A stretch of 64,000 bases of DNA, taken from the NCBI GenBank assembly GCA_964019335.1, contig OZ025731.1, positions 124,001 to 188,000 of the forward strand, given 5' to 3'. A program made the translations under genes and the position numbers. A model generated the notes under the pieces. The model was not told where the DNA came from. It did not search any database and saw only the letters and a list, made by a program, of their open reading frames with translations. Source of the stretch: Diplonema japonicum (lineage: Eukaryota > Protista > Euglenozoa: Diplonemea). This document shows, in pieces, positions 19,165-61,825 of this stretch (position 1 is its first letter; every line of letters begins with the position of its first letter).

Positions 19165-19195
<31 letters not shown>

Positions 19196-24558: not shown

Positions 24559-24596
<38 letters not shown>

Positions 24597-24815: not shown

Positions 24816-24860
<45 letters not shown>

Positions 24861-25293: not shown

Positions 25294-25436
25294 CCTACCA
25301 AAAGAAACGAGCAAAGGAAAGAAACCCCGTGACACGATCTGCGGTTCAAGAATCAAGGCAGATGCTCTGTTCTGCTTTGTTTCCACCCCCGCTGTAGAAA
25401 CCCTACCCCACACATCCTAACTAAATTCCTGGCAGC

Positions 25437-25516
25437 ATGATGAGGACTATTCCTTCAAACGTTTCCTGTTAGCTTGATCGACCAAGATGACACATTTTTT
25501 ACTCAGCTCACTCTGA
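25437..25516 (+). ncRNA. Box C/D snoRNA family C copy
   Basis: Family C with a small change upstream of the D guide. Confidence 0.85.
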
Positions 25517-25561
25517 ATCTCTCCTCCCCTGGGCTTTTTAAAAAAAGATGAAAAGGAGAAC

Positions 25562-25664
25562 ATGATGACAGAAATCTGGATCCAACACGGACGACCCCCT
25601 ATTCTTAAAGGGCCCGGCTGAAAGATAAGCCCTTATTTCAAAACCGAGCTTTTTAACAGCCTGA
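25562..25664 (+). ncRNA. Box C/D snoRNA family B2 copy
   Basis: Ends AACAGCCTGA. Confidence 0.87.
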
Positions 25665-25793
25665 CCCATCCTAACTTAATTTCTGGTAACATGATGAGGA
25701 CTATTCCTTCAAACGTTTCCTGTTAGCTCTGTTCTGCTTTGTTTCCACCCCCGCTGTAGAACAGCTGTCTTGACATTTCTTTTTTTGGACTAA

Positions 25794-25903
25794 ATGATGA
25801 CAGAAATCTGGATCCAACACGGACGGTCCCCTTTTTTTTAAAAAAAAAGGGTACCGGCTGAAAGATAAACCCTTATTTCAAAATACGAGCTTTTTAACCC
25901 TGA
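25794..25903 (+). ncRNA. Box C/D snoRNA family B1 copy
   Basis: Ends AACCCTGA. Confidence 0.87.
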
Positions 25904-25958
25904 TATTACAGCGAAGCATTTGTGGCTGTCTGTTTGCCCCATTTCCCCCCAGCTCCTT

Positions 25959-26037
25959 GTGATTACAACCTTACGTTCGTTATATTTTTTTTCATTGACA
26001 CAAACCACGTGAAAACTTATTATGGTCGAGATCATGA
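25959..26037 (+). ncRNA. Box C/D snoRNA family D copy
   Basis: Matches 16335-16413. Confidence 0.6.
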
Positions 26038-26098
26038 AGGACAGCACACGCCTTTTCTTCTCTCTTCCCTTTCTTCCCTTCCCTCCCGTTGTTTTGAG

Positions 26099-26213
26099 GT
26101 GATGATACCTGGACTCTACCGCCCTAGCCAATCTGAAGATCTTCAAACAATCGCTTGTTGAGCAACGATTCCTATCAAATACCCTACCTGACTTCTGATC
26201 GCAGGGGTTCTGA
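26099..26213 (+). ncRNA. Box C/D snoRNA family E copy
   Basis: Matches 16475-16589. Confidence 0.65.
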
Positions 26214-26251
26214 GGGGTCCTTCTTTTCATGAGACGAAGAAAGAACTCCCA

Positions 26252-26318
26252 GCAGACAGTTGAGTCGCTTCCATTTCTCGTTGATACTTGTGAAGTGAAT
26301 TATGCTTCTGCGAGAGGT
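26252..26318 (+). ncRNA. Single-hairpin AGA-box pseudouridylation guide RNA (damaged copy 29376-29436)
   Basis: GCAGA/TCTGC lower stem, internal pocket, TCGCTTC/GAAGTGA upper stem, then AGA+3 nt. Confidence 0.65.
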
Positions 26319-26400
26319 GTCTTGCTGGTGCCCTTTACCTCTCGTTTGCTCCCCGCTGTAGAAACCCTACCCCACACATCCTAACTAAATTCCCAACAAC

Positions 26401-26481
26401 ATGATGAGGACTATTCCTTCAAACGTTTCCTGTTAGCTTGATCGACCAAGATGACACATTTTAACACTCAGCTCACTCTGA
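26401..26481 (+). ncRNA. Box C/D snoRNA family C copy
   Basis: Matches 17110-17190. Confidence 0.87.
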
Positions 26482-26542
26482 TTTTTAGCTTAATATTTTC
26501 GGTTCACGGGGTGAAACAAACGTAGAGAAATATCAAAAAGAA

Positions 26543-26647
26543 ATGATGACAGAAATCTGGATCCAACACGGACGACCCCTCTTTTTTTAAAGGGGCCCGG
26601 CTGAAAGACAAACCCTTATTTCAAAACCGAGCTTTTTAACAGCCTGA
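26543..26647 (+). ncRNA. Box C/D snoRNA family B2 copy
   Basis: Ends AACAGCCTGA. Confidence 0.87.
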
Positions 26648-26702
26648 TTCACTTCTTTTTCTTTCGCTTCCCAGTTCTTTTCTCTGGAGCTCCTCGCCAA
26701 CA

Positions 26703-26773
26703 CCCTTGCATCGCTCTGCTCTGTTCACGACCTTCACCCGTACAGATGACAGATGAACTACAGGGGGAGATAC
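26703..26773 (+). ncRNA. Single-hairpin AGA-box guide RNA candidate (partial copy about 29486-29525)
   Basis: CCCTTG/CAGGGG lower stem, TCTG..TCTGT/ACAGA..CAGA upper stem, then AGA+3 nt. Confidence 0.55.
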
Positions 26774-27004
26774 CTTTATCCCGCACATTCTTTTCCTTAA
26801 TATTATAGACAGCGACAAGGCTGTAGAAGAACTGCACGTGTGCTAGGGGCACCCGGTGGCCCTGAGCTGATGGTGAATTTTCTCGACGAGCAAGCTGACA
26901 TGGGCAGGCTTCTCTCAGGCTTCAATAAAACTTTAACTGCTAAAACAGATACACATTGAGAAAAAAAAAGAAGAAGAAAAAAAAAAAAGAAAAAGAAACC
27001 AACA

Positions 27005-28018
27005 ATGCAGATGCTGTACCTTGCTCTTTTCGCTGTGGGTGTGGCGGTATCGGAAGGAACGGAGCAGAACGCGCAGGAGGACCGTGTCGGGGAGAAGGTG
27101 GCGGAGGATGTGTCGAAGGGGGCAGTGAGCGCGAACATGCTCGGGGGGACCTTGTGGGATTGGGACCGATGCGTGGCGGAGCCGTGCAAGGAAGGGGAGG
27201 GGGACTGCGACTCGGATGCGGAGTGCAAGGCTGGGCTGACGTGCGGGCACAACAACTGCAAGACGATGCACCCTGCGGAGGCGGACCTGTACATGACGTA
27301 CGCGGACTGCTGCGAGGTGATGCAGCCCTTCCACCTGGACTACTGTCAGGAGAAGCCTGGCTGTGGGTTCGGGGTCGGGGACTGCGACGACGACGACCAA
27401 TGCGGAGCAGGGCTGGTGTGCGGGTACAACAACTGCAGGGCGATGCACGCGAGGACGGACCCCGTGTTGATCCACCACAGAGCCGACTGCTGCACAACTT
27501 GCGCGGCTGTGACTGTGGTGCTGGACGGGATCCCCACCCCTCAACCCCCGATGTCCTTCGTCGGCGGGAAGCTCGTGACAGCTGAGAGGACGCTCGCGAA
27601 CCCTCCGAGTGTGCTGGCAGGGTCCGTGGTCCACAGCCTCCCGTCCCTCTCGTCCGACGATGAGATCAAGCTGGAGTGCTGTGCGAAGAAGAACACCCCG
27701 TGCAACTTCTTCGTTGCGGTCTACCACTGCCCCCCTTGCTCCGCCACCGCCAACGGCGGCATCCCCAACTTCCTCGCTTCCCAAGGATGGAGCGGCTCCT
27801 CCTGCGCTCCGATCTTCACCCCCGCTGGCTCCTCGCAAGCCCAGACCATGACGGTCTTCCAGAAGACCCTCCAGGCGGGCGAGGACCTCACCATCCCCCT
27901 CTCCACAGCTGCCCCTCATGTTGCCGTCTTCACCACCACTGGGGGTGTCGGGGATTGGTGCCCCAACAGGGTGGCCACCGGCACCAAGGGTCCCAACAGA
28001 CCTTGCGTGTGCCTTTGA
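27005..28018 (+). CDS. Secreted cysteine-rich protein, copy 1
   Basis: Signal peptide; two GxGDCDxDxxCxxGLxCGxNNC repeats; Cys-rich C-terminal domain. Confidence 0.85.
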   Translation: MQMLYLALFAVGVAVSEGTEQNAQEDRVGEKVAEDVSKGAVSANMLGGTLWDWDRCVAEPCKEGEGDCDSDAECKAGLTCGHNNCKTMHPAEADLYMTYADCCEVMQPFHLDYCQEKPGCGFGVGDCDDDDQCGAGLVCGYNNCRAMHARTDPVLIHHRADCCTTCAAVTVVLDGIPTPQPPMSFVGGKLVTAERTLANPPSVLAGSVVHSLPSLSSDDEIKLECCAKKNTPCNFFVAVYHCPPCSATANGGIPNFLASQGWSGSSCAPIFTPAGSSQAQTMTVFQKTLQAGEDLTIPLSTAAPHVAVFTTTGGVGDWCPNRVATGTKGPNRPCVCL

Positions 28019-28560
28019 GAGGGAGGGAGAGAGGGAGAGAGAGTGAGGCGTGCCAAATAGAGTTTCTGAAAACCCTTTCTCCCCCGTTCGTCTTCTCTCA
28101 GCAGAAGGGCGGCGGTGGAGAAAACCTTTATTCTATGATTTATCATTCCTCTGGAATGTCCCTTTTCTTTTCTTTTTTTCGCTGTGTCACATACTGCATG
28201 GCACCACTAAAATCGAGACTACCTTTTTTTCTTTCTCATTTACTTACCTAAGTTAACTTCCTCTCTTTCCCCTCCCTTTTTTTTTAGCTTGGCCCCACAA
28301 GACGGGGGCCTCTGCTGAAGAAATGCGATGAAGAGGGATCTGTTGATAGCTTCCAAAAAATGCGAAAGTTATTGAGCCGTCTTCTTCTTCTTCTTCTTCT
28401 TCTTTCTTTTCTCATTTCTTATTACTTTTTGTTCGCTGTTGGGGGGGGGGGGGGGGGGGGCAAGATACATTATCGTCTTGCATTCACTATTGCTAAATGA
28501 AGACAGAAATCTGGATCCAACACAAGCGCCTTTGTTTAGCCCTTGAAGCCGTGCCAGCAC

Positions 28561-28645
28561 ATGATGACAAACCCAAACCCATCGGTGTGTACGAATTCTG
28601 ATCTTCTGAATTGAGGACAACTTCTTCTTTCGACGGGCGGACTGA
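28561..28645 (+). ncRNA. Box C/D snoRNA family A copy
   Basis: Matches 16679-16763. Confidence 0.88.
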
Positions 28646-28782
28646 CCTACCAAAAGAAACGAGCAAAGGAAAGAAACCCCGTGACACGATCCGCGGTTCA
28701 AGAATCAAGGCAGATGCTCTGTTCTGCTTTGTTTCCACCCCCGCTGTAGAACAGCTGTCTTGACATTTCTTTTTTGGACTAA

Positions 28783-28894
28783 ATGATGACAGAAATCTGG
28801 ATCCAACACGGACGGTCCCCTTTTTAAAAAAAAAAAAAAGGGTACCGGCTGAAAGATAAACCCTTATTTCAAAATACGAGCTTTTTAACCCTGA
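28783..28894 (+). ncRNA. Box C/D snoRNA family B1 copy
   Basis: Ends AACCCTGA. Confidence 0.87.
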
Positions 28895-28949
28895 TATTAC
28901 AGCGAAGCATTTGTGGCTGTCTGTTTGCCCCATTTCCCCTCAGCTCCTT

Positions 28950-29026
28950 GTGATTACAACCTTACGTTCGTTATATTTTTTCATTGACACAAACCACGTG
29001 AAAACTTATTATGGTCGAGATCTTGA
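28950..29026 (+). ncRNA. Box C/D snoRNA family D copy
   Basis: As 16335-16413, with D box TTGA. Confidence 0.6.
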
Positions 29027-29122
29027 AGGACAGCACACGCCTTTTCGTGGTTCGTGTCGCTGACAGCTGCCAAGCTGAAAAGACTGGACTAGGATAAGAT
29101 TTTTGTTACTCTTGTTGTTTGC

Positions 29123-29203
29123 ATGATGAGGACTATTCCTTCAAACGTTTCCTGTTAGCTTGATCGACCAAGATGACACATTTTAACACTCAGCTCACTC
29201 TGA
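29123..29203 (+). ncRNA. Box C/D snoRNA family C copy
   Basis: Matches 17110-17190. Confidence 0.87.
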
Positions 29204-29625
29204 AACCCCTTTCTATTTGCTCCAGTGAGCGCGAACATGCACGCCACTGTTCAGAAATTTGACGGACGCCCCCCCCCCCCTTTTTTTAAAGCCCGGCTGA
29301 AAGGTTTTTCCCCCACGCGTTGAATACACGCGTTCATAAAAAAAAAAAAAAAAAAAAAAAAACAAAGAAATCCCAGCAGACAGTTGAGTCGCTTCCATTT
29401 CTCGTTGATACTTGTGAAGTGAATTATGCGAGAGGTGTGGTAAGACGAGCCCTTGCAGGGAAGAAGTGTGACAAGGTTACCAACACCCTTGCATCGCTCT
29501 GCTCTGTTCACGACCTTCACCTGTATCGGTGCCCCACATCAACGCGGGAGAAAAAACAAAAAGGGAAAAAAAAAAAAAAAATAACCATAGGAAATACACA
29601 CACAAAAAAAGGGGGGGGGGGGGGA

Positions 29626-44050: not shown

Positions 44051-45049
44051 TTTTTTCTTCCTCAATGCTACAAGTGCAATAGGTTAAGTCATGCCACCCC
44101 CACTTGACGTCCTCCCCCGCATTTAAAGAAAGAGGGAGGAATGAGCTGTAAATTTTTCTCTTTTTTTTTGTTAGAAGGAATAGAACAGGTGGAAACCCTT
44201 CCTTCCACAACACAAGGGGGAAACAAAAACCCCTCTTTTATTTCTTATCTTTCCAAATAAGTTCTCCTTTTCATCGGAAGGTGGAGAGGAAATGAAAACG
44301 ATTTCCTCCCCTCTTCTTTTTCTTCTTTTTTTTTTTCTTTTTTTTTTTCGTGTGTCGTTTTAAAGCTTCCAAACAAACGAAGACGAGGGAGGAAAAAGAA
44401 GAAAGAAAAAAAAAATTGACCCCCAGAGGGAAAAAAAAAAAGGGGGGTTAAAGAAAATTTGTTAAATTATTTCGTATACCTCTCTCTCCCCTTCTTTTCC
44501 CCCTGCGACCCAGTGCGAAGCCACTTACAAGCCCTTTATTTTATTTTTACCACTTCTCCTTATTTCTACAAGCTTCATCAGGTAGGTTCGATATTTATTT
44601 TCTTTTTTTTTTTTTTTTTTTTTTTTTTTCTCTTCATAACAAAGAAATGAAAGGGAGGTGGAAAAAAAGGGAAAGAGAAAAAAAAAAGATGCCCATATAT
44701 CCCTGTTTTTTTCATGTTTTTTTTTTTTTTCTCCTACCCAGCTGAGTATGTTTATTCCCTTCCCCTTCCCCTCACACATTCTTTTTGTTTACAAAATTTC
44801 TGTTTTTTTTCTTTTTTTTCTCTTCTTATTTATATCTCTTTTTCCCCATACAATCCTTCTCCTTCGCTCTGCAAACGAGCTCCTGAATTTTCTTGCTGCA
44901 ACACATCTGGAGTCATTGTCCTGCGCATGTGCCAGCAGGGACCCATGGTCCTGGACTGCTGTTTGCCCGAAGTACTTCACCCGCTTAAACAGATACACAT
45001 TGAGAAAAAAAAAGAAGAAGAAAAAAAAAAAAAAAAAAAGAAACCAACA

Positions 45050-46063
45050 ATGCAGATGCTGTACCTTGCTCTTTTCGCTGTGGGTGTGGCGGTATCGGAA
45101 GGAACGGAGCAGAACGCGCAGGAGGACCGTGTCGGGGAGAAGGTGGCGGAGGATGTGTCGAAGGGGGCAGTGAGCGCGAACATGCTCGGGGGGACCTTGT
45201 GGGATTGGGACCGATGCGTGGCGGAGCCGTGCAAGGAAGGGGAGGGGGACTGCGACTCGGATGCGGAGTGCAAGGCTGGGCTGACGTGCGGGCACAACAA
45301 CTGCAAGACGATGCACCCTGCGGAGGCGGACCTGTACATGACGTACGCGGACTGCTGCGAGGTGATGCAGCCCTTCCACCTGGACTACTGTCAGGAGAAG
45401 CCTGGCTGTGGGTTCGGGGTCGGGGACTGCGACGACGACGACCAATGCGGAGCAGGGCTGGTGTGCGGGTACAACAACTGCAGGGCGATGCACGCGAGGA
45501 CGGACCCCGTGTTGACCCACCACAGAGCCGACTGCTGCACAACTTGCGCGGCTGTGACTGTGGTGCTGGACGGGATCCCCACCCCTCAACCCCCGATGTC
45601 CTTCGTCGGCGGGAAGCTCGTGACAGCTGAGAGGACGCTCGCGAACCCTCCGAGTGTGCTGGCAGGGTCCGTGGTCCACAGCCTCCCGTCCCTCTCGTCC
45701 GACGATGAGATCAAGCTGGAGTGCTGTGCGAAGAAGAACACCCCGTGCAACTTCTTCGTTGCGGTCTACCACTGCCCCCCTTGCTCCGCCACCGCCAACG
45801 GCGGCATCCCCAACTTCCTCGCTTCCCAAGGATGGAGCGGCTCCTCCTGCGCTCCGATCTTCACCCCCGCTGGCTCCTCGCAAGCCCAGACCATGACGGT
45901 CTTCCAGAAGACCCTCCAGGCGGGCGAGGACCTCACCATCCCCCTCTCCACAGCTGCCCCTCATGTTGCCGTCTTCACCACCACTGGGGGTGTCGGGGAT
46001 TGGTGCCCCAACAGGGTGGCCACCGGCACCAAGGGTCCCAACAGACCTTGCGTGTGCCTTTGA
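45050..46063 (+). CDS. Secreted cysteine-rich protein, copy 2
   Basis: Near-identical to 27005-28018 (one I/T difference seen); the duplication includes flanks, about 44985-46425. Confidence 0.85.
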   Translation: MQMLYLALFAVGVAVSEGTEQNAQEDRVGEKVAEDVSKGAVSANMLGGTLWDWDRCVAEPCKEGEGDCDSDAECKAGLTCGHNNCKTMHPAEADLYMTYADCCEVMQPFHLDYCQEKPGCGFGVGDCDDDDQCGAGLVCGYNNCRAMHARTDPVLTHHRADCCTTCAAVTVVLDGIPTPQPPMSFVGGKLVTAERTLANPPSVLAGSVVHSLPSLSSDDEIKLECCAKKNTPCNFFVAVYHCPPCSATANGGIPNFLASQGWSGSSCAPIFTPAGSSQAQTMTVFQKTLQAGEDLTIPLSTAAPHVAVFTTTGGVGDWCPNRVATGTKGPNRPCVCL

Positions 46064-46531
46064 GAGGGAGGGAGAGAGGGAGAGAGAGTGAGGCGTGCCA
46101 AATAGAGTTTCTGAAAACCCTTTCTCCCCCGTTCGTCTTCTCTCAGCAGAAGGGCGGCAGTGGAGAAAACCTTTATTCTATGATTTATCATTCCTCTGGA
46201 ATGTCCCTTTTCTTTTCTTTTTTTCGCTGTGTCACATACTGCATGGCACCACTAAAATCGAGACTACCTTTTTTTCTTTCTCATTTACTTACCTAAGTTA
46301 ACTTCCTCTCTTTCCCCTCCCTTTTTTTTTTTTAGCTTGGCCCCACAAGACGGGGGCCTCTGCTGAAGAAATGCGATGAAGAGGGATCTGTTGATAGCTT
46401 CCAAAAAATGCGAAAGTTATTAAGCCCCGTTTTCTTCTATTTTCTCACATTTCTGTTTTGCTGTACCACTGGGGGGGGGGGGGGGGGGGGAAACAAATTA
46501 CTATAAAAAAGGGGGGGGGGGGAGAAAACAA

Positions 46532-49384: not shown

Positions 49385-49636
49385 AGAGGATTTCCTTCTC
49401 TCCTCCTTTTTTTTAAACTACTTGCATGTTTGTATCCGGATTTCATTTTAAATCAGTCATCGGTCAGAAAAGGTTTGGAAAAGAAAGAAACGAAGAAAAA
49501 GAGAAACAAAAAAAGGTAAACTCTGTGCTGGTGCACATGCATTTACACGCTGGGCCAACCTGAAAAAAAGAAAAAGAAAGAAAACACAAACCTAACCTGT
49601 GCCAAAATGGGTTTTTGGTTTTGGGGGGAGAAAAAA

Positions 49637-49718
49637 CGCTGACGGCAGGATTTGAACCTACGCGGGCAGAGCCCAATGGATTTCAAGTCCACCTCCGTAA
49701 CCGCTTGGATACATCAGC
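49637..49718 (-). tRNA. tRNA-Ser(UGA)
   Basis: GCTGATG...CGTCAGCG, anticodon loop CT-TGA-AA, long variable arm, T6 terminator. Confidence 0.93.
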
Positions 49719-49721
49719 CAT

Positions 49722-49754
<33 letters not shown>

Positions 49755-50177
49755 CAAAATACCAATGCAGGGCCGCCATGGAGAGCAACACCTGAGAAAA
49801 GGGAAAAAAAGGTGAAGGGAAACCATGGGGAAATAGGGAGGGCAATGGACCAGGCTTCTGCAAGCAGGAGGAGCCCTGGTCCCCCACCAACCCGTGCTCT
49901 GCTTTGGGACAGCCGAAGAGGGCTGAATTACATTTTTCCCTCAGTCAAGTGAGAGAAAAACGGGGGCCTACCTTCCAGCTGGATGTCCTTCTTTGGCTGG
50001 AACCTCCGGCGGAAAGCCCCCCAGGGAGGTATTGCTCCTATTGAGCGAATCATTGGTGAGTGTGAAAATAAAAAAAGGGGAAATGGGAAACAGTGAGAGG
50101 AAGGTGAAGGAAGGGAAAGGAAGGGAAAGGAAAGTGGAAAACACAACATTTCACTTTACACACACGCGGGCGATCCC

Positions 50178-53100
50178 TTAGCGCAGCACGGGGGCCGCGG
50201 GACCGGCGTCAAGAGAGACCGGAGGAGGGGGCGGCACGTTTGAAGGTGCAGTGACGTCTGTAGACGCCAGGGATGATGGCGAGGTGAACAGTCCGGAGCG
50301 TGACCAGGCGAGCAGGCCAGACTCAACAACGAGGTCGTAGATCTGGGTCACGCGTCTCGACAGGGAGAAGGCTAGGGAGGGAGTACCAGCAGGAGTGTCG
50401 ATCGCCCCCCTCCCGATCACAGGGCACCCACCGACAACATGCTCCCTGGACATCGGTGCTGCGTGGCAGGCTGGGCACCGGAGCACACCCTTGTGCTTCC
50501 TGTTCGGGCCAGCAGTCTGCAGGAAGCCGAAGAAGAGAGCCGAGTGACCAATCCGCAGCCGCGAGATGACCGTTTCAGCTTGTCTGGGGAAGCCAAGGGG
50601 GAAGTGCGCGGACCGAAGCTCGGTCGCCACCGCGTAGTTGTGGGCGAGGGATGTTATGAGCTCCGCGGACCTCCGCACCACCCACCGTCGCACCAGGGCC
50701 CTCACTGATCGGTAGTCAAGGGAGGGCCTGTCCTGCTTCCGCTTCGTTCCCTCCCCGGCCAGAGCGTCAGCCTTCTCGTTCCCGTCCACCCCACAGTGGG
50801 AGGGCACAAACTGGAGGACCACCGGTGTCCCCTGCGTGCGCGCCGCGGACACCAGCCGGCTCCACGTCTGGTGGTCGAGCTTCTCCCTCTGTCGCGTTGG
50901 GCCAGCTCGCAGCTGCTCGACGAGGGAGAGGGAGTCGGTGCAGATCGACAGCGGGGACTTCGCCAGCGAAGGGTGTGTTTTTCGGAGGGTAGCCACCATA
51001 TCCAGCGCCGTTTTCACAGCCATGCCCTCTGCCCGAAAAGATGAACAGAAGTCGTTGACGCCATGGCACACAGACACAGGGGTCAGGGGGGGAGGCAGCT
51101 GCAGATAAACCCCAGAGCCACCTTTCGCCTTCTGTCCGACCTGTACAACCGAGCCATCCGTGTAGGCATGGATGCCCGGGGGGAGAGCCGCAAGAGCAGC
51201 CTCGGCCGCCTTCCGCCTGTCCGCGTCTGGCGACGATCGCGTGACCCCGCCGGGGAGGTCAGTCCTGAAGTCGACCATGCCTGTCTGCCACGGGGCCGCC
51301 AGGGGCGTAGCCGACAGGTACTCGAAGTGCACCTTTGGTTCCAACCCGCATCGACGCAGTGCTTGGTAGCCAGAGCGCAGCCACCCACACCCCAGCCTGT
51401 TCGCCTGCTTCAGCTTGACCGTCTCCCTGTGAACCGGGGAAGACTGCCAGCAGAAGGCCTTCGCCGTCATCGTCGCCGCAGCACCCTCCGCCATTCTTTC
51501 GAGGGGAAGCAGTCCTGCCTCAGCTAGGAGCTTGTACCCTCCGGAGCCACTCCAGCAGCCCGTGATCAGCACCGCCGCCTCCTGGTGAAGCCCAGCCAGG
51601 TCCTTCCTCCCGACATCATCGAGCCTGCTGTAGTAGACCCCCATGCAGTAGCGCAGCAGCGGGAGGATGTACGTAACGTAGAGAGACCGCAGAGTGTCCC
51701 TCTTGCTGCCCCAGGACGTGCCGGACAAGAGCTTCAGCACCCTCAGCCTTTTGCTGGCCCGCCGTAGGATGTCCTGTGCGTGTTCACCGAACGTGAGCCC
51801 AGAGTCCACCGTAACCCCAAGGTACCTCGCGTGTTCAGATAGAGGCAGGGGACGGGCCGCAACGTAATCCACGTCGGGCCGTCGCACGGCTGCATGCATG
51901 TCCCGCACGCAGCGGATCCGCACACCACCCGCCTCCACAACCTGAAGGCCCGCCAGCTCCTGGTCCCCGGAGATCGTGCCATCGGCGTTCACCCCCAGGC
52001 CGAAGAGTGGGTTCTGGAAGGCACCTGGCTGAAGGGGGACTCGTGACGAAGTGAAGTAGACCCCGAGACGTTTCTGGGGGGGGACGCAGACTGCCTGCGT
52101 CTTGGACGTGCTCAGCAGCATGTCACGCTCCCTGCACCAGTCCTCAACCGCATCCACCACCGCCTGCGCCTTCCGCTCCAGCCCAGCCACGTCCCCTTGT
52201 CCAGAGGAGATCACAACCGCCACGTCGTCGGCGTAGAGCACCGAGACGTCCGCCAGTCCCTCCAGTCTCCTGGCGAGTTCGTCGACGTAGATGGTGTACA
52301 GGATGGGACCCAAGACAGAGCCCTGGGGGACACCCCGTCGCACCTTCGTCGTCGACCCCCTCGACCGTCCAATCGTGACCGCAGCAGTACGGCCGCATAG
52401 AAAGGACCGCGTCCACTCCACGAAGGGTTCGGGGAGACCCTTCCCTCGCATCTTGTCCAGCAGGGCACCATGGGGCACCAGGTCGAAGGCAGAAGAGAAG
52501 TCGAACAGCAGAGCGGCCGAGAGACGTCGATCGTCTTTGTTCCTCGACATGCACTCAGTGAGGGTTGCCACCTGCTCCTCCGTGGAGCGGCCGCGTCTGA
52601 AACCAGCCTGGCTGTCGTGGAGTCCCTCGACTCCCGTCCCGTCCGCGTCAAGAAGAAACGTGAGCCTCTCCTCGATCATCCTCTCCAGCAGCTTGCAGAG
52701 GCAGCTGGTCAGGCAGATCGGCCGGTAGGAAGCCAAGAGAGTCGCATCTTTTCCAGGTTTCGGTACCGGGACGATCACTCCCTTCTTCCAGGCACCGGGG
52801 ACGACACCCATCAGCCAGGAGCGATTGAGGAGTAGAAGGAGGACACCGAGGGAGTCCGAGTTCAGGTGTAGGAGCATCTCCGAGAAGATTCCGTCTTCCC
52901 CGGCCGCGCTGCGCGTCTTCATCCTTCTCAGGCCGCGGGTGAGGTCGTCCACGGTGAACGCTTGACACCCGAGTCTGCTTGCAGAAGGAGCGGCGTCCTT
53001 CGAGTTCCCGTCACCACGCCTGCCGTAGAGCTTAGCGAAGTGCGCCCCCAGCCGGTCGGCCTTCGCCTTGTCCGACACAAATCTTCCCTCGAGTACAGGA

Positions 53101-54326
53101 AGGTGTGTCTTTCGGTGCCTGCCGTCCAGCTTCTTCACCGCTCTGAACGCAGCCCCGAGGTCCTTGCTCCGGCTGAGGTCGGCCGCCATCCTTCCCCATG
53201 CCTCACGCTTCGTCTCGTCAAGGAGTCGGTTGACTTCCTTCACCTTCGCCCTGTACTCCTCCACCACGTCCGCCTCTTGAAGCAGGAGTTCGCGCAGGGT
53301 GTTCCGCTCTTCGAAGGCATCCTCGAGCTCAGCAGTCCACCAGGGGGTCGGGCCACGTCGCATCCCACAGAGGGGAATGTGGTCGTTCGCCGCAGTCAAA
53401 AGGGCTTGTGTAAACCCCTTCGTGACAGAGTCAATCGGAGCCGCCGTGTCAACACCAGCAAGCAGGCGGGCAACAGCAGCAGTGTAGTCATCCCATCTGG
53501 CTTTTTTGAAATTCCAGGTGGGGAAGGGGCGCTCCGAACGGTAGACGTCCTCAAGAGGCAGGTGAAAGGATACGGGACTATGATCGGAGCCCCACGTGCC
53601 CAGCGTCTTCGGCTCAAGCTTTGCGCAGCGCCCCACAACCAGGTCCAGAACGTGTCGTGACGAGTCCCTCGTCGGTTCGTTGCGGTCGTTGTAGACGGTG
53701 TACCCGTGGGTGTCCAGCCAGTCCCTGACCACGTTCCCCCTCTCGTTCGGCGTCGTCACCGTGGCGTCCCAGGAGCTGTGGTGAGCATTGAAGTCACCCG
53801 CTATGACTGTGTTCTTCCCCATGGGAAGGCTGCCAGGCCGCAGGTACTCAGGGTCCCTCGTGCCTCTGCCCGCGCTTACCGGTGTAAGGTAAACGTTGGA
53901 GAGAGTGATCGGCTCACGCTTCTCGCAGGAGATCCTCACATCCAGTCTCTCAGTGACACAGTCCCCAGCCGGGAGTACGTGCGGAACCTCCTCCGAGGCA
54001 AGATCGTCGCGGACATACGTGACAATACCACCACCCCTCGTCGCAGTGCCGTCAGTCACCGGTGTCAACCGATCCCTCCTGTATGACCTGTACCCAGGCA
54101 GGTGTGGCGTGTCGTGCCCTTCCCTCAGGTGCGTCTCCTGTATCATGATGATGTCCAGCGACAAGAAGTCAGCATGGCGAGATACGACGGTCCATTTCGC
54201 AACGAGGCCGTTGCAGTTCCACGAGACAACCTTGAGACCCTTAGGCGACGGGGGCGGCAGCTTCTTGGGTGGGCCAGGGTTTGTTTCGACCAGCCCAAGC
54301 AGCCCCAGCAGGTCCCTGACGGACAT
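50178..54326 (-). CDS. Retrotransposon ORF2: 2A-like peptide, AP endonuclease, reverse transcriptase, RNase H, CCHC finger
   Basis: VETNPGP; SWNCNG, QETHL, GDFNAH, SDH; GVPQGSVLGP, YADD; YTDGS..CTDS..PSHCGVDGNEKAD; CPAC..EH...C. Confidence 0.95.
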   Translation of the reverse strand: MSVRDLLGLLGLVETNPGPPKKLPPPSPKGLKVVSWNCNGLVAKWTVVSRHADFLSLDIIMIQETHLREGHDTPHLPGYRSYRRDRLTPVTDGTATRGGGIVTYVRDDLASEEVPHVLPAGDCVTERLDVRISCEKREPITLSNVYLTPVSAGRGTRDPEYLRPGSLPMGKNTVIAGDFNAHHSSWDATVTTPNERGNVVRDWLDTHGYTVYNDRNEPTRDSSRHVLDLVVGRCAKLEPKTLGTWGSDHSPVSFHLPLEDVYRSERPFPTWNFKKARWDDYTAAVARLLAGVDTAAPIDSVTKGFTQALLTAANDHIPLCGMRRGPTPWWTAELEDAFEERNTLRELLLQEADVVEEYRAKVKEVNRLLDETKREAWGRMAADLSRSKDLGAAFRAVKKLDGRHRKTHLPVLEGRFVSDKAKADRLGAHFAKLYGRRGDGNSKDAAPSASRLGCQAFTVDDLTRGLRRMKTRSAAGEDGIFSEMLLHLNSDSLGVLLLLLNRSWLMGVVPGAWKKGVIVPVPKPGKDATLLASYRPICLTSCLCKLLERMIEERLTFLLDADGTGVEGLHDSQAGFRRGRSTEEQVATLTECMSRNKDDRRLSAALLFDFSSAFDLVPHGALLDKMRGKGLPEPFVEWTRSFLCGRTAAVTIGRSRGSTTKVRRGVPQGSVLGPILYTIYVDELARRLEGLADVSVLYADDVAVVISSGQGDVAGLERKAQAVVDAVEDWCRERDMLLSTSKTQAVCVPPQKRLGVYFTSSRVPLQPGAFQNPLFGLGVNADGTISGDQELAGLQVVEAGGVRIRCVRDMHAAVRRPDVDYVAARPLPLSEHARYLGVTVDSGLTFGEHAQDILRRASKRLRVLKLLSGTSWGSKRDTLRSLYVTYILPLLRYCMGVYYSRLDDVGRKDLAGLHQEAAVLITGCWSGSGGYKLLAEAGLLPLERMAEGAAATMTAKAFCWQSSPVHRETVKLKQANRLGCGWLRSGYQALRRCGLEPKVHFEYLSATPLAAPWQTGMVDFRTDLPGGVTRSSPDADRRKAAEAALAALPPGIHAYTDGSVVQVGQKAKGGSGVYLQLPPPLTPVSVCHGVNDFCSSFRAEGMAVKTALDMVATLRKTHPSLAKSPLSICTDSLSLVEQLRAGPTRQREKLDHQTWSRLVSAARTQGTPVVLQFVPSHCGVDGNEKADALAGEGTKRKQDRPSLDYRSVRALVRRWVVRRSAELITSLAHNYAVATELRSAHFPLGFPRQAETVISRLRIGHSALFFGFLQTAGPNRKHKGVLRCPACHAAPMSREHVVGGCPVIGRGAIDTPAGTPSLAFSLSRRVTQIYDLVVESGLLAWSRSGLFTSPSSLASTDVTAPSNVPPPPPVSLDAGPAAPVLR

Positions 54327-54467
54327 CCTCCCGAGTAGGGTGGGGATCAGTGCAGAAAAGTCGGTGAAGAAACAGAGAGGTAGGAGTCTCCTGGGGAGGA
54401 TGCGAGGGAGACTAGGAGAGGGAGCATGGTCGTAGATCTGCTGCTCCCCCTGTTCTGCGGGGCCCCT

Positions 54468-56426
54468 TCAATTGGATGGACCCATGGAGGCAGAGCGCCC
54501 CTTGACCCCATTGGTGAAGAGATCTTTGGTCTCCGCGAACGACCTGGCCCGCCCCCTCGTACCCAGGTTCGTCACCGCAGCCTCAGAGGTCGTAGCGAGA
54601 GGAGGAGCCCCCTTCTTCCCCTTCCCCTTCCCTTTCCAGACACTGTCGTGTGTCGTCGTCGCCCCCGGTGTAGGGTCCCGCGGCACTGCCGTTCCCGTCG
54701 TCAGCGTGGCCGCCTGCGGCAGGAGGAGGCGGAGCGTCGTCCGCAGATCGGAGATCATCTCCTGCTGAGAGTCGATCGTCCTCTGCAGCCCGACGATCGA
54801 CTCCTTCAGCGTGGCGACGAGCTCAGTGAGAGCGGCGACCTCAGGCGACCCGGAAGGGACCCCCTCCTTGTTTCCCCCAGACACGTTGCGGGGCGGTGTA
54901 GGGGACGTCACAGTGTCGAGCTGGGGGGGAGCCACCGAGCTCGGTATGGACGCCCACGGGCTGGTGGGAGGAAGCCCAGTTGCTTTCACCGCAGGGTCAG
55001 TCCCCGAGGGTGTCGACGCCGATACAGGTGCCGGGTCAGGTACAGGTGTAGGCGCAGGTGCAGGTACATGAGAAGATGTGGGTGCCGGGGTCGAGGACGT
55101 TGCAAGCGCAGGTGCAGATGCAGGTGTCGTCCTGTTGATGAGAGGGGGCGGCTTGACGGTCGGGTGGTCGTCCGCATCACGGAGACAGACAAGGCGCCCC
55201 CCAAGGAGCCACGTCCTGGACTTCGGGGGCGGGCTGTCGACGACGATGAAGAACACGAGTTGCCTCGTGCCCTGGAACATCGTCTGCGTGCGTCGCAGGA
55301 CGGAGGATGGTTTCCAACCGATGTGGTCCATCACTTCGTCGAAGGCCGCCCTGGTGATGGACGGCGGGGCCCCGGTGAGCAAAAACTTGCGCTTCGTACG
55401 CAGTTTTGCGAGGGTTTCCCGGAGCCGCTGTTCCGTCTCCGGTAGGCACCGCACAGTCCATCCCTTACGGTGCGCCACCCCGAGAGACAACCCACCCAGC
55501 GTCCCCGCAATCCGAAAGGCATCCGCCCTCCCTTCCGCCACGATGGGTACATAAGCGTACCCCCCGCGTCTCTCCGTCGTCCGCATTAAGCACCCGTCCC
55601 CGGACCGGCGCAGGACGGCGTGGACGTGTGCTGCTTGCAGGCGCAGTCCCACCTCGTGGGTCCAGTGCCTCGCCCGCGGTTCCTCCTCACCGAACTTCCT
55701 TGGGCGGAAGACCGCACGATCCTCCATCACCGCGCCCTGAGCCTTGGCGAGCTCCAGGACCCTGGCCTTCGCCTCCTTCAGGCTGTCTGCACTGACACAG
55801 ACGTAGACGACCTCCGATCCGCTGTTGAAGGTGGAAGGCGGGGTGTAGGTGGGGGGGTCCAGCCCGAACGTGGAGACGTGGACCCTCCTGTTCACTGCGC
55901 GCGACCCAGAGACCATGACAATCTCGCTGGGGGTGGTGACACCGGGGACCTCTGTCATAAGGACAAAGGTGATGGATGCCGTAGGTAACGCGGAGCACAC
56001 GACCCCCATTCCGGAGGGATCGTCGAGCGCAATGACAGCGCGGGATGTTTCCGTCGGGGGGGACACGTTGGTGTAGATCGGGGCGTCCCATGTGTCTGGC
56101 ACCAGGTCCCATCGCGGGGTTGTGGAAGGGGCAGGGGCAGGGTCGTCCTCCATCTCCTCAGGGCCAGAGCTGGTGTCAGAGTCTGAGCTGAGGAGGAGCG
56201 TGCCTTGGTCTGTTGACGCGTTGGCGGAAGCGTTCGCGACTGCTTCGTCCTCGACCTTCTGGGCATCTGCCTTCTTGGCGGCCGCCAACCTCAAAGCTTC
56301 CTCCTTTTTGGCAGCGGCTGCGGCGGCTTCCTTTTCGGCGGCGGCGGTGGCTGCGACCTTCTTCTTCTCCTCGGCGGCGGCGGCTGCGGCTGCGGTCTCC
56401 TTCTCGGCGGCGGCGGCTGCAGCTTG
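54468..56426 (-). CDS. Retrotransposon ORF1 (open frame lacks an initial ATG)
   Basis: About 650 open codons with an Ala/Lys/Glu-rich start, a globular core conserved in the second copy, a Pro/Thr linker and a short coiled coil. Confidence 0.8.
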   Translation of the reverse strand, partial: QAAAAAAEKETAAAAAAAEEKKKVAATAAAEKEAAAAAAKKEEALRLAAAKKADAQKVEDEAVANASANASTDQGTLLLSSDSDTSSGPEEMEDDPAPAPSTTPRWDLVPDTWDAPIYTNVSPPTETSRAVIALDDPSGMGVVCSALPTASITFVLMTEVPGVTTPSEIVMVSGSRAVNRRVHVSTFGLDPPTYTPPSTFNSGSEVVYVCVSADSLKEAKARVLELAKAQGAVMEDRAVFRPRKFGEEEPRARHWTHEVGLRLQAAHVHAVLRRSGDGCLMRTTERRGGYAYVPIVAEGRADAFRIAGTLGGLSLGVAHRKGWTVRCLPETEQRLRETLAKLRTKRKFLLTGAPPSITRAAFDEVMDHIGWKPSSVLRRTQTMFQGTRQLVFFIVVDSPPPKSRTWLLGGRLVCLRDADDHPTVKPPPLINRTTPASAPALATSSTPAPTSSHVPAPAPTPVPDPAPVSASTPSGTDPAVKATGLPPTSPWASIPSSVAPPQLDTVTSPTPPRNVSGGNKEGVPSGSPEVAALTELVATLKESIVGLQRTIDSQQEMISDLRTTLRLLLPQAATLTTGTAVPRDPTPGATTTHDSVWKGKGKGKKGAPPLATTSEAAVTNLGTRGRARSFAETKDLFTNGVKGRSASMGPSN

Positions 56427-56429
56427 CTA

Positions 56430-56699
56430 AAAATTAACGTCCCGAGGGACGGGTTGCACTTGCCCCTGTACCCTATGGCTCCTCCTAACGGGCTGCTGGG
56501 AGAATTGAACCGACGCTACTAGAAGGCTGCCCATGCGCTAACCAACTAGACCACGATCGATCCCAAAATTAACGTCCCGAGGGACGGGTTGCACTTGCCC
56601 CTGTACCCTAAGGCTCCTCCTAACGGGCTGCTGGGAGAATTGAACCGACGCTACTAGAAGGCTGCCCATGCGCTAACCAACTAGACCACGATCGATCCC
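56430..56699 (-). repeat. Two tandem 135-bp tRNA-derived/Pol III units at the retroelement 5' end
   Basis: Units 56430-56564 and 56565-56699 differ at one base; A box TGGTCTAGTTGG, B box GGTTCAATTC, each unit ends in T4-5. Confidence 0.85.
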
Positions 56700-57376
56700 G
56701 CCCATGACTTTTTTTTGCCATAATAACCACTGGGGGGAAACTGGGGGTGGGGTGGGGTGTGTCCAGTCTTTTGTCAGTAACCGAGAGGGCCACCACGTGG
56801 GCTGAACCTTCCCTTCGGGAATCAGCCATGGCAATGGCGGTGTTTTTAATAATAATAATAATAATAATAATAATTCCACTACCAGGCGGGAGGATCGATG
56901 GGGAGTAGAGAAAACAATTCAAGGGGAAGGGAAAGGGATATCACTTCAAACCAAGAGAAGTGTTCGAAAGTGACTCGTGAAAAGCAATCTCTGTTACTGA
57001 GCCATTGGTCGAGGGGCCCCGGTCCTCTGCTCCCTGTAGTATATTACTTGGACCCCCTCACCACGCTCTTTTCATATTAAAATAAAACCGATCCCACCCA
57101 CCAGGCAGCACCTGGGTCTCGAGGCATTAGCCGCCCCTAGTAACAAGAGACGACCTCCCAGATTTTAAGAACTTTGGAAGAGTTTCAATGTGAAAAATTA
57201 ACCAGCTGACTGTGAAACTCCACCGTCTGCCGGACTTGTTGGGCTTTCGGGAGCCAAAATTCAATTCAATTAAGTTTCGTTCTTCAATTTTTTTTTTATT
57301 ATTCTCAAAATAAAGGATTTCAAATCAAGCTCGATCGTGTACACCAAAATAATAATAATAATAATAATAATAAGGT

Positions 57377-57377
<1 letters not shown>

Positions 57378-57428
<51 letters not shown>

Positions 57429-59830
57429 CAAAATACCGATAGGTGCCACCATCAACCCGTGCACCTGTTTGGAACAGCCGAAGAGGACTGAATTACTTTA
57501 ATTCCAAGCCGCGTAGACCTACGTGACTCGGACGGGGACCTTGACCCCAGTTCGTCGTTTTTCTCAACTGGGACCTCTGGTGACCGGAACTGGCCCCGGT
57601 CGCCCCCTCGAGAGGGATCGCTCCATTGAGCGAAACATGAAAGGGAAGCGAGTGTGCGTGTGCGCATGGATTTGCTCTCGCTGCACTCCGGCTGGCGGGG
57701 GAGGGGATGGCCGTACCACACTCGTTCGTGCGAAGATGAGAGGACTCATCAGGGCAACTTCAGAGTAGGCCGGGCCATCCGTTTTTGACTACAATGTCAG
57801 GGCACACGACAACAAGAGGATGTTAATTTTAAAAATTTAAAAGTTTAAAGGGGGGGGACGGGCATACTGGTAAGAGAACGGCCAAACGCTGGATGATGAT
57901 GATAACATAAGAAAAGGATGAGAGGAAGTGGAAGAGAAGGGAAGGGAACGTAAGCACTAAAAGAATTGAAAAGTTGATCTCACCCTACTCACTTCAGCGC
58001 AACACGGGGGCCGCAGGGCCGGCGTCAAGAGAGACAGCCAAGTGGCGGAGGGGCTACCGAGCTCGGTGGTGATGACCACGGATTGGTGCTCGGCAGCCCT
58101 GTGGACTGCGCCGTGGGGCCAGGGACCGGCGTCTGGGCCGTGGTTGCCGCAACCGGCGTTTGAGCCGCGGGTGGAGCCTTCTTGTTGGTGCGGGGCGGGA
58201 GTGTGACGCTCGGGTGGTCTTCCGCGTCGTGCGTCGAAGGAGGCGAGAGCCGAAGAGCCATGTCCTGGCCTTGGGGGGCGGGGCGTCGGCGACGATGAAG
58301 AACACGAGCTGCCTCGTGCCCTGGAACGCCGTGTCAGAGCGTCGGATGATAGACGACGGCTTCCACCGATGTGGTCCATCATCCCGTCGAAGGCTGCCCT
58401 GGTAACAGACAGCGGGGCTCCGGTGAGCAGGTACCGACGCTTTGTCCTCTGCTTGGCGAGGGCCTCCCTCAGACGCTGCTCTGTCTCCGGCAGGCACCTC
58501 ACGGTCCAACCCTTGCGATGGGCCACCCCCAGGGACAACCCGCCCAGTGCCTTCGCCAGCTGGAAGGCCTCCGCCCTCCCCTCCGCTACGATGGGCACGT
58601 GGGTGTACCCCCCGCGCCGCTCGGTCGTCCTGACCATGCAGCCGTCGCCCGAGGCCCGGAGTACCGCATGGACGGATGCCGCCGGGAGCCGCAGGCCTAC
58701 CTCGTGGCTCCAGTGCCGCGCCCGCGGCTCGTTCCTGTCGATCTTCTTCGGGCGGAAGATCGCCTGCTCCTCCACCGCCACGCCCTGGGTCGCGACGAGG
58801 TCCCGAACCCTGGCCTTCGCCGCGTTCACGCTGTCAGCTTTCACGCTGACGTACACCTCAGAGCCGCCATCGAAAGAAGCAAGTGGGGTGTAGGAGGGGG
58901 GGTTCGAACCGACCGAGAAAAGTGCACGGCCTTGTACGACACGCTGGCCGGCGAGCACGATGACGGTGCATGGGGTGGTCGAACCGGCAACCTCCGTCAA
59001 GAGGACGAAGGTCAGGGAGGCCGTGGGCCTCGCAGTGCGAATCGCGTCCACCTGCTGGAGGTCGTCGAGAGCGACGACGGCGCAGGGCACCTCCTCAGGG
59101 GGAGCAGTGTTGGCGTAGGGGCGTCCCACGTGTCGGGGACCAGATCCCAGCGAGGCTCCGGGGCCGGTGCGGGAGCGGGGGCCGTGTTCTTCTCGTCGGT
59201 GTCAGAGTCCGACATGGGGAGGGCGGTGTCGCAGGCAGCGGCAGTGAGGACGGCAGTAGACCACACGGCAGCAGTAGGGGCTGGAGCCGGAGCAGGAGCA
59301 GTGGTGTCAGCAGTAGAGGCTGGAGCAGGCGCAGGAGCAGGGGAGTCGGCAGCAGCAGGCGCAGGAGCAGTGGTGTCGGCAGCAGCAGGTGCAGGAGCAG
59401 GGGAGTCGGCAGCAGCAGGTGCAGGAGCAGTGGTGTCGGCGGCAGCAGTCCTCATCCTCGCCCTCCTGACCTCAGGCGTGTCGACCGTGAACGAGGTGAC
59501 AACGCCCGGCGACTCGCTAATTAAGACGACAGAATCGTCGGAGCCCGAAGCGGCGGTGGTGGCAGCGTCAGCAGCTGCTGCCTTCTGTCTGGCCCTTCTG
59601 GCCGCCTTCTTCCCTTGCCCGTGGGAGGGTGTCACCACCGGCGTGACCCCCTCTGCGCGCTTCCTCTCCACCTCCTCGCGCGTGCGCTTCGCCCTGGCGG
59701 CGGCGTTGTCCCTTACCCGCTCCTCGCGGGCTTTCTCCAGGACTTCCTCAGTCCTGGACTTGTGGTGCGGGCCTCTTCTTCTTCTTGTTGTTGGAGGTCG
59801 ACATTTTTCTTTTCTATTCTTTTCTTTCCT
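57378..59830 (-). mobile_element. Internally deleted, frameshifted relative of the 49.7-56.7 kb retrotransposon
   Basis: T-run 57378-57428 followed by CAAAATACC as in copy 1; shared 3'UTR blocks; the last ~13 codons of ORF2 (57994-58035) are joined to an ORF1 homolog. Confidence 0.88.
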
Positions 59831-61825
59831 TGGCGGTGTTTTCGGGTAAATTTAATATTCGCAACACCATTTCCGATGGGCGTTTTCGGATTGGTTTTCA
59901 AGGTTTCATTTCTTATGATACCTGCACAGCCAGGAGGTGGTTCTACCACAAACTAGGCTCTAGGTATTCGAAAGATCTTTTGATTCCAGAACCAATCACT
60001 GTCGAACGGGTTGACCTGTGATTTCCTAACGATATAATATTCGAATGGAGGATTCGAGGATGCGAAAAAAAAAAAAGAAGAAAAAAAGAACAAAACTGAA
60101 GGGGAGGAAAAATGCAGTTCCATTAGGGGAAAAAAAAAAAAAAAAAAATGCGCAACTCTTTCTTTTCTCCTTCATTCCTCCGACACAAGCAACAAAAGAA
60201 ATACAGGATCCTGTATACCCTTTTCCACTTTCCATGGTAGCTGTTTTATACAAACTTGACACTGTGTGACGATACACATGGCTTTAGGATCACACAGACG
60301 AAGGAAAGTTCTTTTTCAAAGTTACTGTGGAGAGTGGAGAAGGAGAAAAAAAGTTCTGGGAAATACAGGTAATCTCATCTCGTTTCGGCTCCACTTTTAA
60401 AACCCCCCCGTTGAACTTAAAAACATAAAGTAACACTTACGCACATCACCTCCCCCCTTTTTTTTAATTATCCCTAAAGGAGGGGGCAGACGTTGTTGTC
60501 CTTATTTCAAAAAACAAAACAAAAAAAAAACCCCCCCCATAAAACCGAAAGTACTTTTTTTAGCGACCCCTGGACTTGGAAAACCGCGTTGCCAACTCCA
60601 TATCCGGAGAGCGGAGAATGTGCCAAAGAGTACGGGGTGGAACGACGGACAAATGGTACCAGCAGAAAAAGGACCGCGACTTCCTCGGGGCCAAACCTTC
60701 GCCCTGGATGAAGAACATCAAGCGGGCTTGGGAAAAAACTCTCCCTCATTGAGCTGGCAATGGCAAGAACAGGACATGAAAAATACTCGGGAAAAAAGAA
60801 AGTGGACGGATCCTTTCATGCCCGACAACGGGGCACAACAACTCACCAGCCCTCAAGCGCAGACACGTTGATGATGAGGATGTCCTCACCCAGACCCAAA
60901 CTTCTCGATCAGACCCTTTATCACACTCCGAGTGCCAAAAAGTTTCAAGACCCTGAATGCCGCCTTTTTTTTTTTTTGGCCCAAACCCCCCAAAAACAGA
61001 CACTCAAACATACACCCTCCAACCCATCTTGCACAACCAGTGGAGTGACCCTCATCTGATTCTGACAACCGAAATGGAAAATATATAACATTTTACCCAT
61101 TTCCTGTATCTTCCTATGGTTTGTGCACTGTCCTTTTTTTTTTTTTTTTTTCGCAGCATTCAAAACAACAATGAATGAGGGGGGTATCGTAGGCTCGCGT
61201 CCTTGGGGAGATATTTCTTCTTTCCCGCTCTTGGTGTGCTGTCAGTACGTATCCCCTCACTTCTTTTTCTTTTTTTTTTCTTTTTCTTTTTTTTTTCTTC
61301 AAAGAAGAGTGCCTCCTTCCTTTATTTGATTCAACTTAGATACATGTGACATGAAAAGACAAAAAAGAGAGAACAGAGGAAAAATAAGGAGAATGGTACC
61401 CGGGGGTTTTTTTTTTCCTTTTTTTTTTAAATAACCTTTTATTAGTTCGGTTTGATATTTTTATCCCCTCTCCCCGCCCTTTATCCCCTATCTCACCCCC
61501 CCCCCCCTTTTTTAGAACATGAGGCGGCGGGTAATTTTTTTTTTTTTTTAATTTCTTCTTTGCACGGAGACGGCATAAAGAAAAAAATCGTTGTTTGGTG
61601 CAGCCGTCATCTTGCTTCTTTGCTCATGGGGAATGATATCAGAAAAAAAAAAGAAAAAAAAAAGGATTCCTCATTTAAAAAAAAAAATTAATTTCCCCCT
61701 CCCATTTCCCTCCATTTTCAGCTTTTTTCTCGAGAAAAATCTATACCCCATTTTACAACCCACCCCAGGCGGGGGAAGAAAAAAAAAGAAAAAAAAAAAA
61801 AAAAAAAAAAGAGAGAGAAAAAGAA

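Follow-up and report, generated by a model that had tools for sequence, protein, structure and literature searches.

Two questions about long interspersed nuclear elements (LINEs) are open: how a bicistronic RNA is made to supply the little protein needed from its second open reading frame (ORF2p), and what role is played by the 2A peptides that some LINEs carry. In LINEs, 2As stand before the APE endonuclease, mostly in elements without an ORF1 (PMC3708506, PMC3894237). The closest described systems are Ingi/L1Tc and other 2A-bearing APE-type LINEs, which, like the element described here, have a 2A-like motif directly before APE and the domain order APE, reverse transcriptase (RT), RNase H (PMC3708506). 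The same source describes the Ingi clade as lacking an ORF1 and having a leader of 40-80 aa, and names three 2A-bearing LINEs with an ORF1 (CR1-26_BF, CR1-53_BF and CR1-1_LG), for which no readthrough is described in the text consulted. The element that concerns us lies in a 64,000-nt stretch of the Diplonema japonicum genome (contig OZ025731.1 of assembly GCA_964019335.1, positions 124,001 to 188,000; hereafter the window, meaning the whole stretch). In contrast to the Ingi clade, its family has an in-frame 951-aa ORF1, one stop codon before ORF2, and Leu for Asp in the 2A-like motif. We suggest tentatively, and at somewhat less than an even chance of being right, that its ORF2p is made by readthrough of this UGA followed by release at the 2A-like StopGo motif.

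Each part of such a route has precedent. In the group 3 LINEs of Paramecium tetraurelia, ORF1 and ORF2 likewise share a frame, and readthrough of the ORF1 stop has been suggested from consensus sequences (PMC5405496); these elements form a separate ciliate clade, the proposal is a prediction only, and the available text mentions neither a 2A nor an RNA structure. In alphaviruses and gammaretroviruses an abundant ORF is separated from an enzymatic one by a leaky stop, with a 3' structure and lowered downstream synonymous variation (PMC8310308, PMC13517186, PMC3159437). Alphavirus stops are followed by a 3' C, their stimulator usually lies at least 8 nt after the stop, and the product remains a fusion that a protease cleaves, whereas here the stop is UGA-A, the predicted helices begin at +4 and +17, and StopGo would bring about the release. 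In cardioviruses, StopGo followed by a -1 frameshift makes two serial recoding events set a protein ratio (PMC5009743), although the order is the opposite, the first event is different and the system is viral. Finally, L1 and SART1 have a bicistronic LINE RNA with a short spacer and structure near the junction (PMC5972666), but the spacer is 63 nt or an overlapping UAAUG, and there is no 2A. Additional background is given in PMC12338488 and PMC13598402. Our literature search, mostly of open papers, covered LINE ORF2 readthrough, readthrough with StopGo in retrotransposons, and diplonemid LINEs, and found neither this element nor readthrough followed by StopGo described. The initial annotation of the window, a model's reading of the letters, knew of no description of the combination; the combination alone is new, because LINE readthrough had already been predicted (Paramecium group 3) and a few 2A LINEs with an ORF1 are known.

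The element is an APE-type non-long-terminal-repeat retrotransposon, with APE and RT in ORF2, a 3' poly(A) and a truncated 5' end, and its domain order is that of a two-ORF APE-RT-RNase H LINE of D. japonicum. On the minus strand, a 652-codon ORF1 frame (56426-54471) is closed by a TGA (54470-54468), after which the same frame runs for 141 nt (54467-54327) without an in-frame stop to the ATG at 54326, MSVRDLLGLLGLVETNPGP; linker and ORF2 together make 1429 codons, ending at 50178 (-). Reading frames and Pfam thus bear out the initial annotation, which had seen the TGA and 141 open nt leading into a 2A-like motif and the endonuclease. From its AUG, ORF2 is intact (1382 aa; Pfam domains endonuclease, RVT_1 and RNase_H) and 99.8% identical to the D. 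japonicum transcript protein P0001, whose transcript locus also encodes a 951-aa ORF1 (P0052) with the same C-terminal residues as the window ORF1. We take the window copy to be a 5'-truncated insertion, because about 299 codons are absent from the start of its ORF1 and it ends in a 30-nt poly(A); hence the mechanism is a matter of the family rather than of this copy. The junction is real, belongs to the family and is partly conserved, in a previously undescribed LINE with two ORFs and a 2A.

Seven runs were compared as assembled contigs, which lose rare variants, and some of the runs are perhaps the window's source. Contigs of X1, X9 and X11 span the stop without a listed change, those of X12, X14 and X20 fall short of it, and X16 holds a diverged homolog; a sister family was found in X1, X9 and X11. 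The features of the element, all on the minus strand, are as follows.

54468..56426, minus strand: ORF1, 5'-truncated (last 652 of ~951 codons), with an Ala/Glu/Lys-rich repeat, a central domain and a Pro/Thr-rich tail
54468..54470, minus strand: ORF1 stop UGA, then AGG GGC; same C-terminus in P0052, and crossed unchanged by the X1, X9 and X11 contigs
54327..54467, minus strand: in-frame open linker of 141 nt, 47 codons, no in-frame Met; X16 homolog over 54150-54476 with net indel 0
54417..54451, minus strand: predicted hairpin B (the stem of the initial annotation), 10 bp with a 15-nt loop; pairs at a probability of 0.97-0.98 in all 11 folding windows
54313..54409, minus strand: predicted helix C, 54409-54394 with 54332-54313, covering the ORF2 AUG; its core pairs at a probability of 0.90-0.96 in 10 of the 11 windows
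54301..54464, minus strand: predicted long-range helix A, 54464-54455 with 54311-54301; probability 0.96-0.99 in 5 of 11 windows and 0.01-0.18 in the other 6
54391..54422, minus strand: pyrimidine tract (26/30) and CAG/G, candidate spliced-leader acceptor; ranked first of 345 AG sites in the element
54347..54427, minus strand: out-of-frame upstream ORF (uORF) of 26 codons within the linker
54270..54326, minus strand: AUG and 2A-like peptide MSVRDLLGLLGLVETNPG/P; 8 of 8 sister-family changes synonymous, counterpart in D. ambulator
50178..54326, minus strand: ORF2 with APE endonuclease, reverse transcriptase and RNase H (Pfam), 1382 aa; P0001 at 99.8%
49725..50177, minus strand: 3' untranslated region (UTR) with a poly(A) tail of 30 nt that stops 6 nt ahead of a tRNA-Ser gene

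The 5' truncation, the uORF (opened by an out-of-frame AUG at 54427) and the pyrimidine tract with its CAG (54422-54391) had been overlooked by the initial annotation. The UGA is a feature of the family and not of the window copy. A nonsense mutation peculiar to this copy, which a sense codon at the site in other copies would have revealed, is rejected because the stop is common to the transcript ORF1 (P0052 ends at the same residue) and to contigs of three runs. A host code with UGA as sense is also ruled out, 6 of the 14 long plus-strand frames of the window ending in TGA. On sequence, the family has kept an in-frame stop with an open frame downstream, as readthrough would require.

We propose that most ribosomes would terminate at the UGA to give ORF1p, while a minority would read through it, aided by the predicted structure just 3' of the stop. 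Termination would be slowed, and free use of the AUG restrained, by the fold of the linker, made up of hairpin B, helix C across the AUG and possibly helix A. Ribosomes that had read through would then translate a poorly conserved spacer, and StopGo at NPG/P would free APE-RT-RNase H, starting at Pro, from a fusion with the ~1000-aa ORF1 portion. The outcome would be the high ORF1p:ORF2p ratio that LINEs need, with the full-length template RNA serving for both proteins. The 2A has an obvious use provided that a fusion arises. The significance of this route, were it true, is that the job of a LINE 2A would be to split an ORF1-ORF2 fusion, Leu12 would join the working 2A variants, and a cellular mobile element would have two serial recoding events in a ratio switch of the Gag-Pol type. 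As readthrough, reinitiation and trans-splicing predict differently, the junction offers a compact 200-nt test case. The likelihoods that we attach to these readings are our own judgement and rest on sequence and predicted folds.

A 9-bp stem had been noted 17 nt after the UGA; it is present after that spacer and extends to 10 bp (54451-54442/54426-54417), and stems of at least 10 bp arise in 1.7% of shuffles, while 5 of 88 windows along the element contain one. Folding of 54300-54476 predicts hairpin B, helix C over the AUG and the long-range helix A, whose 5' arm begins 4 nt after the UGA and whose 3' arm lies within the 2A codons. The stability of the fold alone is ordinary, because six sub-regions around the junction have minimum free energy z-scores between +0.78 and -1.44. 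Conservation adds to this picture: the third positions of ORF2 codons 4-12 are changed at 0 of 9 sites versus 8 of 12 in the adjoining codons (post hoc P=0.005, the invariance being inferred from 30 bases common to X9 contigs). These unchanged bases form the 3' arms of helices A and C, and the only sister-family change visible between those arms, at 54321, sits in an unpaired bulge. We treat the structure as a prediction with circumstantial support, not covariation. The GLVETNPGP codons (54270-54297) are themselves predicted to form a local hairpin, and the in-frame CUG 54294, which encodes the Leu found in place of Asp, stands just 3' of helix A.

Diverged variants allow the junction to be followed beyond the window copy. 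The X16 record aligns with the window over 54150-54476 (327 versus 327 bases, with 47 changes, two gap letters and a net indel of 0), and its conserved block ends 6 nt 5' of the stop, because its remaining 405 bases do not align. Its changes are concentrated in the 48 nt at 54329-54376, with 24 there versus at most 16 in the remaining linker and stop (100 nt; P=3e-5). Seventeen X16 linker codons, read by hand, contain no stop, and their BLOSUM sum exceeds that of a kind-preserving null (P=0.035); the sister family's loose end corroborates codons 38-47, whereas codons 31-37 are possibly shifted by the gaps. Over the last 10 linker codons, the X11 and X16 variants have three differences, all at third positions (by hand). 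The sister family itself matches the window at 54208-54328, the match ceasing 2 nt ahead of the AUG, and all 8 of its changes in ORF2 codons 13-24 are at third positions and synonymous (read by hand); the 2A-like codons are under purifying selection. Upstream, the X16 (54476) and X11 (54606) contigs pass from a linker-side match into 405 and ~990 nt, respectively, unlike the window ORF1. Families may have swapped ORF1 tails, and the X16 record has a mosaic appearance.

Another way to view the same evidence is that ORF2 begins at its own AUG (54326) on a bicistronic RNA, by termination-reinitiation, shunting or internal entry, along the lines proposed for L1 and SART1, a route that we consider unlikely, though a serious contender. 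The stop-anchored structure would then guide or limit initiation, and the shared frame would be chance or the remnant of an old ORF2 leader, an account to which we give no greater weight. In a variant, by analogy with known shunting, ribosomes would bypass helix A and initiate at the in-frame CUG 54294. The initial annotation had itself cautioned that the ATG would permit reinitiation, and the AUG is indeed conserved in the variants: it is unchanged in X16, bounds the X11 match and marks the edge at which conservation drops, the X16 divergence being 24/48 just upstream of it versus 7/92 downstream. The D. ambulator ORF2 proteins also start with a Met shortly ahead of the 2A motif, 14 residues before G/P, these being ORF-caller starts. 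Reinitiation in SART1 requires downstream structure, and L1 bridges a spacer of 63 nt (PMC5972666). Here, however, a terminating ribosome would have to cross 141 nt with structure near -60 kcal/mol and an out-of-frame AUG on the way, and would find the ORF2 AUG buried in helix C, whereas reinitiation declines with distance in the viral and SART1 cases (PMC3708506, PMC5972666). Initiation at the AUG also leaves unexplained the net-zero length and conservative changes of the X16 linker. A leader remnant has no detectable echo in the linker peptide, the best score against the leaders of 30 2A-bearing relatives being 35 (P=0.20), so that a recognisable old Ingi leader is unsupported.

Returning to readthrough with StopGo, its second step depends on a motif that departs from the known pattern. 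The core reads G-L-V-E-T-N-P-G-P, and the motif is on its sequence not a canonical 2A, because Leu replaces Asp at position 12. This substitution had been noted as a caveat, which holds and extends further, as Leu lies outside not only the canonical D(V/I)ExNPGP core but also the expanded (D/G/C/N)(V/I)ExNPGP core, so that the core is not that of class A. The upstream residues are those of class A (Gly before the core, Leu-rich from -13 to -10), with Gly at -8 and Leu at -10, -12 and -13, and active peptides have Gly at -8 and Leu within -13 to -10 (PMC13405545). Among natural variants in their native context, C, N, V and T at position 12 are 88-95%+ active, and His at 14 and 16, as in D. ambulator, is likewise active (PMC12846837). 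Leu12 is not among the variants found tested in the available text of PMC12846837 or of bioRxiv 10.64898/2026.09.24.754024, though the supplements of the latter may list it. At the matching position the D. ambulator ORF2s have GDV..(N/H)PGP.

Readthrough might also occur with a motif that is inactive or merely stalls, in which case ORF2 would be part of a ~2400-aa ORF1-ORF2 fusion or the motif would lower output. We regard this as very improbable. Every substitution of D12 abolished the activity of P2A and F2A (bioRxiv 10.64898/2026.09.24.754024; PMC12846837), several tested LINE 2A-like sequences were inactive (PMC3708506), and Leu-rich eukaryotic 2A-like peptides can lower protein level (PMC13405545). 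Against an inactive motif stand the synonymous nature of all 8 sister-family changes, which fall in codons covering V-E-T-N-P-G-P, the canonical GDV of D. ambulator and the activity of the hydrophobic Val12 (PMC12846837).

Spliced-leader (SL) trans-splicing, fitting for this host, was absent from the options considered by the initial annotation. The linker could be an intercistronic SL acceptor, a fraction of the RNA being trans-spliced at the CAG/G (54392-54390). The product would be a monocistronic ORF2 mRNA with a 64-nt 5' UTR free of the AUG at 54427, and hairpins concealing the tract would keep splicing down. Both this route and this product seem to us improbable, more so than initiation at the AUG, yet they compete closely. 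A pyrimidine tract followed by an AG does lie upstream of the AUG, as an acceptor would need. Of the 345 AGs in the element, that at 54392 has the strongest tract before it (26/30, within the range of 18-30 for 11 host genes in the window; P=0.004 against shuffled linkers). Essentially all D. papillatum mRNAs carry the SL, with 5' UTRs of ~70 nt (PMC10161547), and the fast-diverging 48 nt would become UTR. The tract, however, also supplies one strand of helices B and C, a role that accounts for its pyrimidines. It is rich in C, and the AUG lacks the A-rich stretch that precedes most host starts. Trypanosome L1Tc/ingi transcripts are unspliced (PMC1874656), and in T. brucei splicing is coupled to cleavage ~100 nt upstream (PMC6597758), which here would fall inside ORF1. 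Trans-splicing also leaves unexplained why conservation ends at the stop. A search of seven supplementary files of PMC10161547 yielded nothing on acceptor sites, our search of mostly open papers found no description of a trans-spliced LINE ORF2, and the absence of SL loose ends from the run contigs is uninformative. Were trans-splicing true, a LINE would be borrowing the host spliced leader for a subgenomic mRNA. A second tract (28/30 pyrimidines, with CAG/G, at 49793-49823) lies in the element's 3' UTR, ~40 nt ahead of the poly(A), and could act as an acceptor for downstream RNA.

Set against readthrough followed by StopGo, beyond the Leu12 core, the loss of activity on D12 substitution, the D. 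ambulator Met and the conserved AUG, are several further points. The stop context is UGA-A and not UGA-C (the base directly 3' of UGA). An open 47-codon linker is given by 34% of dinucleotide shuffles, or ~11% when the frame match is included, and the linker is pyrimidine-rich in composition. Junction-fold z-scores of -0.9 and -1.5 are not significant, helix A is lost in 6 of the 11 folding windows (hairpin B held in 11 and helix C in 10), and the 5' arms of helices A and C are not among the best duplex partners in the element (the top ten for A). In X16, a stop-free run in the 17 codons is expected in 84% of cases anyway, the residue identity (5/17) and the codon-position counts (9/5/10) are within chance, and 31 of the 47 changes are among those listed, the stop-codon letters and both gap positions lying outside the listed rows. 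Conservation of the linker frame, proposed as a check by the initial annotation, is seen in X16 (net indel 0 and no stop in the 17 listed codons), but the X1/X11 sister family shows no alignment across 54377-54476, on the 5' side of the linker. Among 30 representative matches there was no fused ORF1-ORF2 relative, nor was the ORF1-stop-linker-2A arrangement found in 80 metagenome loci, all distant (22-34% identity). The double recoding cassette that the initial annotation had proposed therefore stands in part: a family-wide stop, a frame length kept in one diverged homolog, 2A codons under purifying selection and conservation tied to the stop speak for it, while UGA-A, Leu12 and the conserved AUG speak against it. 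The shared frame, the net length, the stop-bounded conserved block, the buried AUG and the selected 2A nonetheless incline us, short of conviction, towards readthrough with StopGo.

The relatives of the element bear on how such a junction could have arisen. Its nearest are the D. ambulator ORF2s (41-45% identity), whose motif is directly N-terminal to the endonuclease. In a quick RT tree of 79 rows, with no named Ingi or L1Tc reference, the D. japonicum/D. ambulator pair falls within a 26-row group (Shimodaira-Hasegawa-like approximate likelihood ratio test, SH-aLRT, 94), which also contains unnamed RNase H elements bearing the canonical 2A, GDVExNPGP. The element has, like Ingi, a 2A-like motif directly before APE and an RNase H after RT, but Ingi is a single ORF with no ORF1 (PMC3708506) and the transcript locus here has one of 951 aa; because it has an ORF1, the element is not assigned to Ingi. 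The Ingi 5' signature is 77-79 nt with a hepatitis delta virus-like ribozyme; a scan of 49500-60200 with Rfam found no ribozyme, in a copy whose 5' end is missing, and its hits besides tRNA were all under the gathering score. As a tentative history, in which our confidence is again limited, Diplonema LINEs would descend from single-ORF, 2A-bearing, Ingi-like ancestors that gained an upstream ORF1 in frame, a stop-anchored structure reaching the 2A codons would drive readthrough and hide the AUG, and StopGo at LVExNPGP would release ORF2p.

ORF1 gave no Pfam match, with RRM-like leads only (scores <0.9), and its predicted fold has a predicted local distance difference test (pLDDT) score of 33. 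A search for ORF1 among proteins of 358-1141 aa returned the host's own protein only, no search for longer proteins having been made. No close copy turned up when viral, metagenome and prokaryote collections were scanned by pattern and by protein. P0056, considered as a fused ORF1-ORF2 relative, proved to be a repetitive multi-domain model of another element. In P0002 of D. ambulator the 2A motif and endonuclease start are present twice within residues 1-125, probably an assembly chimera of paralogues, and L012 (1-9934) has two tandem 2A-bearing elements in one frame with a single TAG between them, probably a tandem insertion or assembly artefact.

Around the element, in the region 49637-49754, its poly(A) ends 6 nt upstream of a same-strand tRNA-Ser gene, and targeting of tRNA genes is possible from this single case, which has no visible target-site duplication. 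At the 5' truncation point stand two tandem copies, 99% alike, of a 135-bp unit (56430-56699) with A-box- and B-box-like stretches and no ARAGORN or Rfam call. A second element (57420-59851), in which an ORF1 with a frameshift (core aa identity 65%) is joined to the final ORF2 bases, a 3' UTR and poly(A), has the appearance of a deletion derivative left with ORF1 only, because its 3' end is common with the sister family in X11. Elsewhere in the window, short dispersed repeats of one family lie within 16278-29525, and a 1.46-kb direct duplication links 26930-28388 with 44974-46438 at 99% identity.

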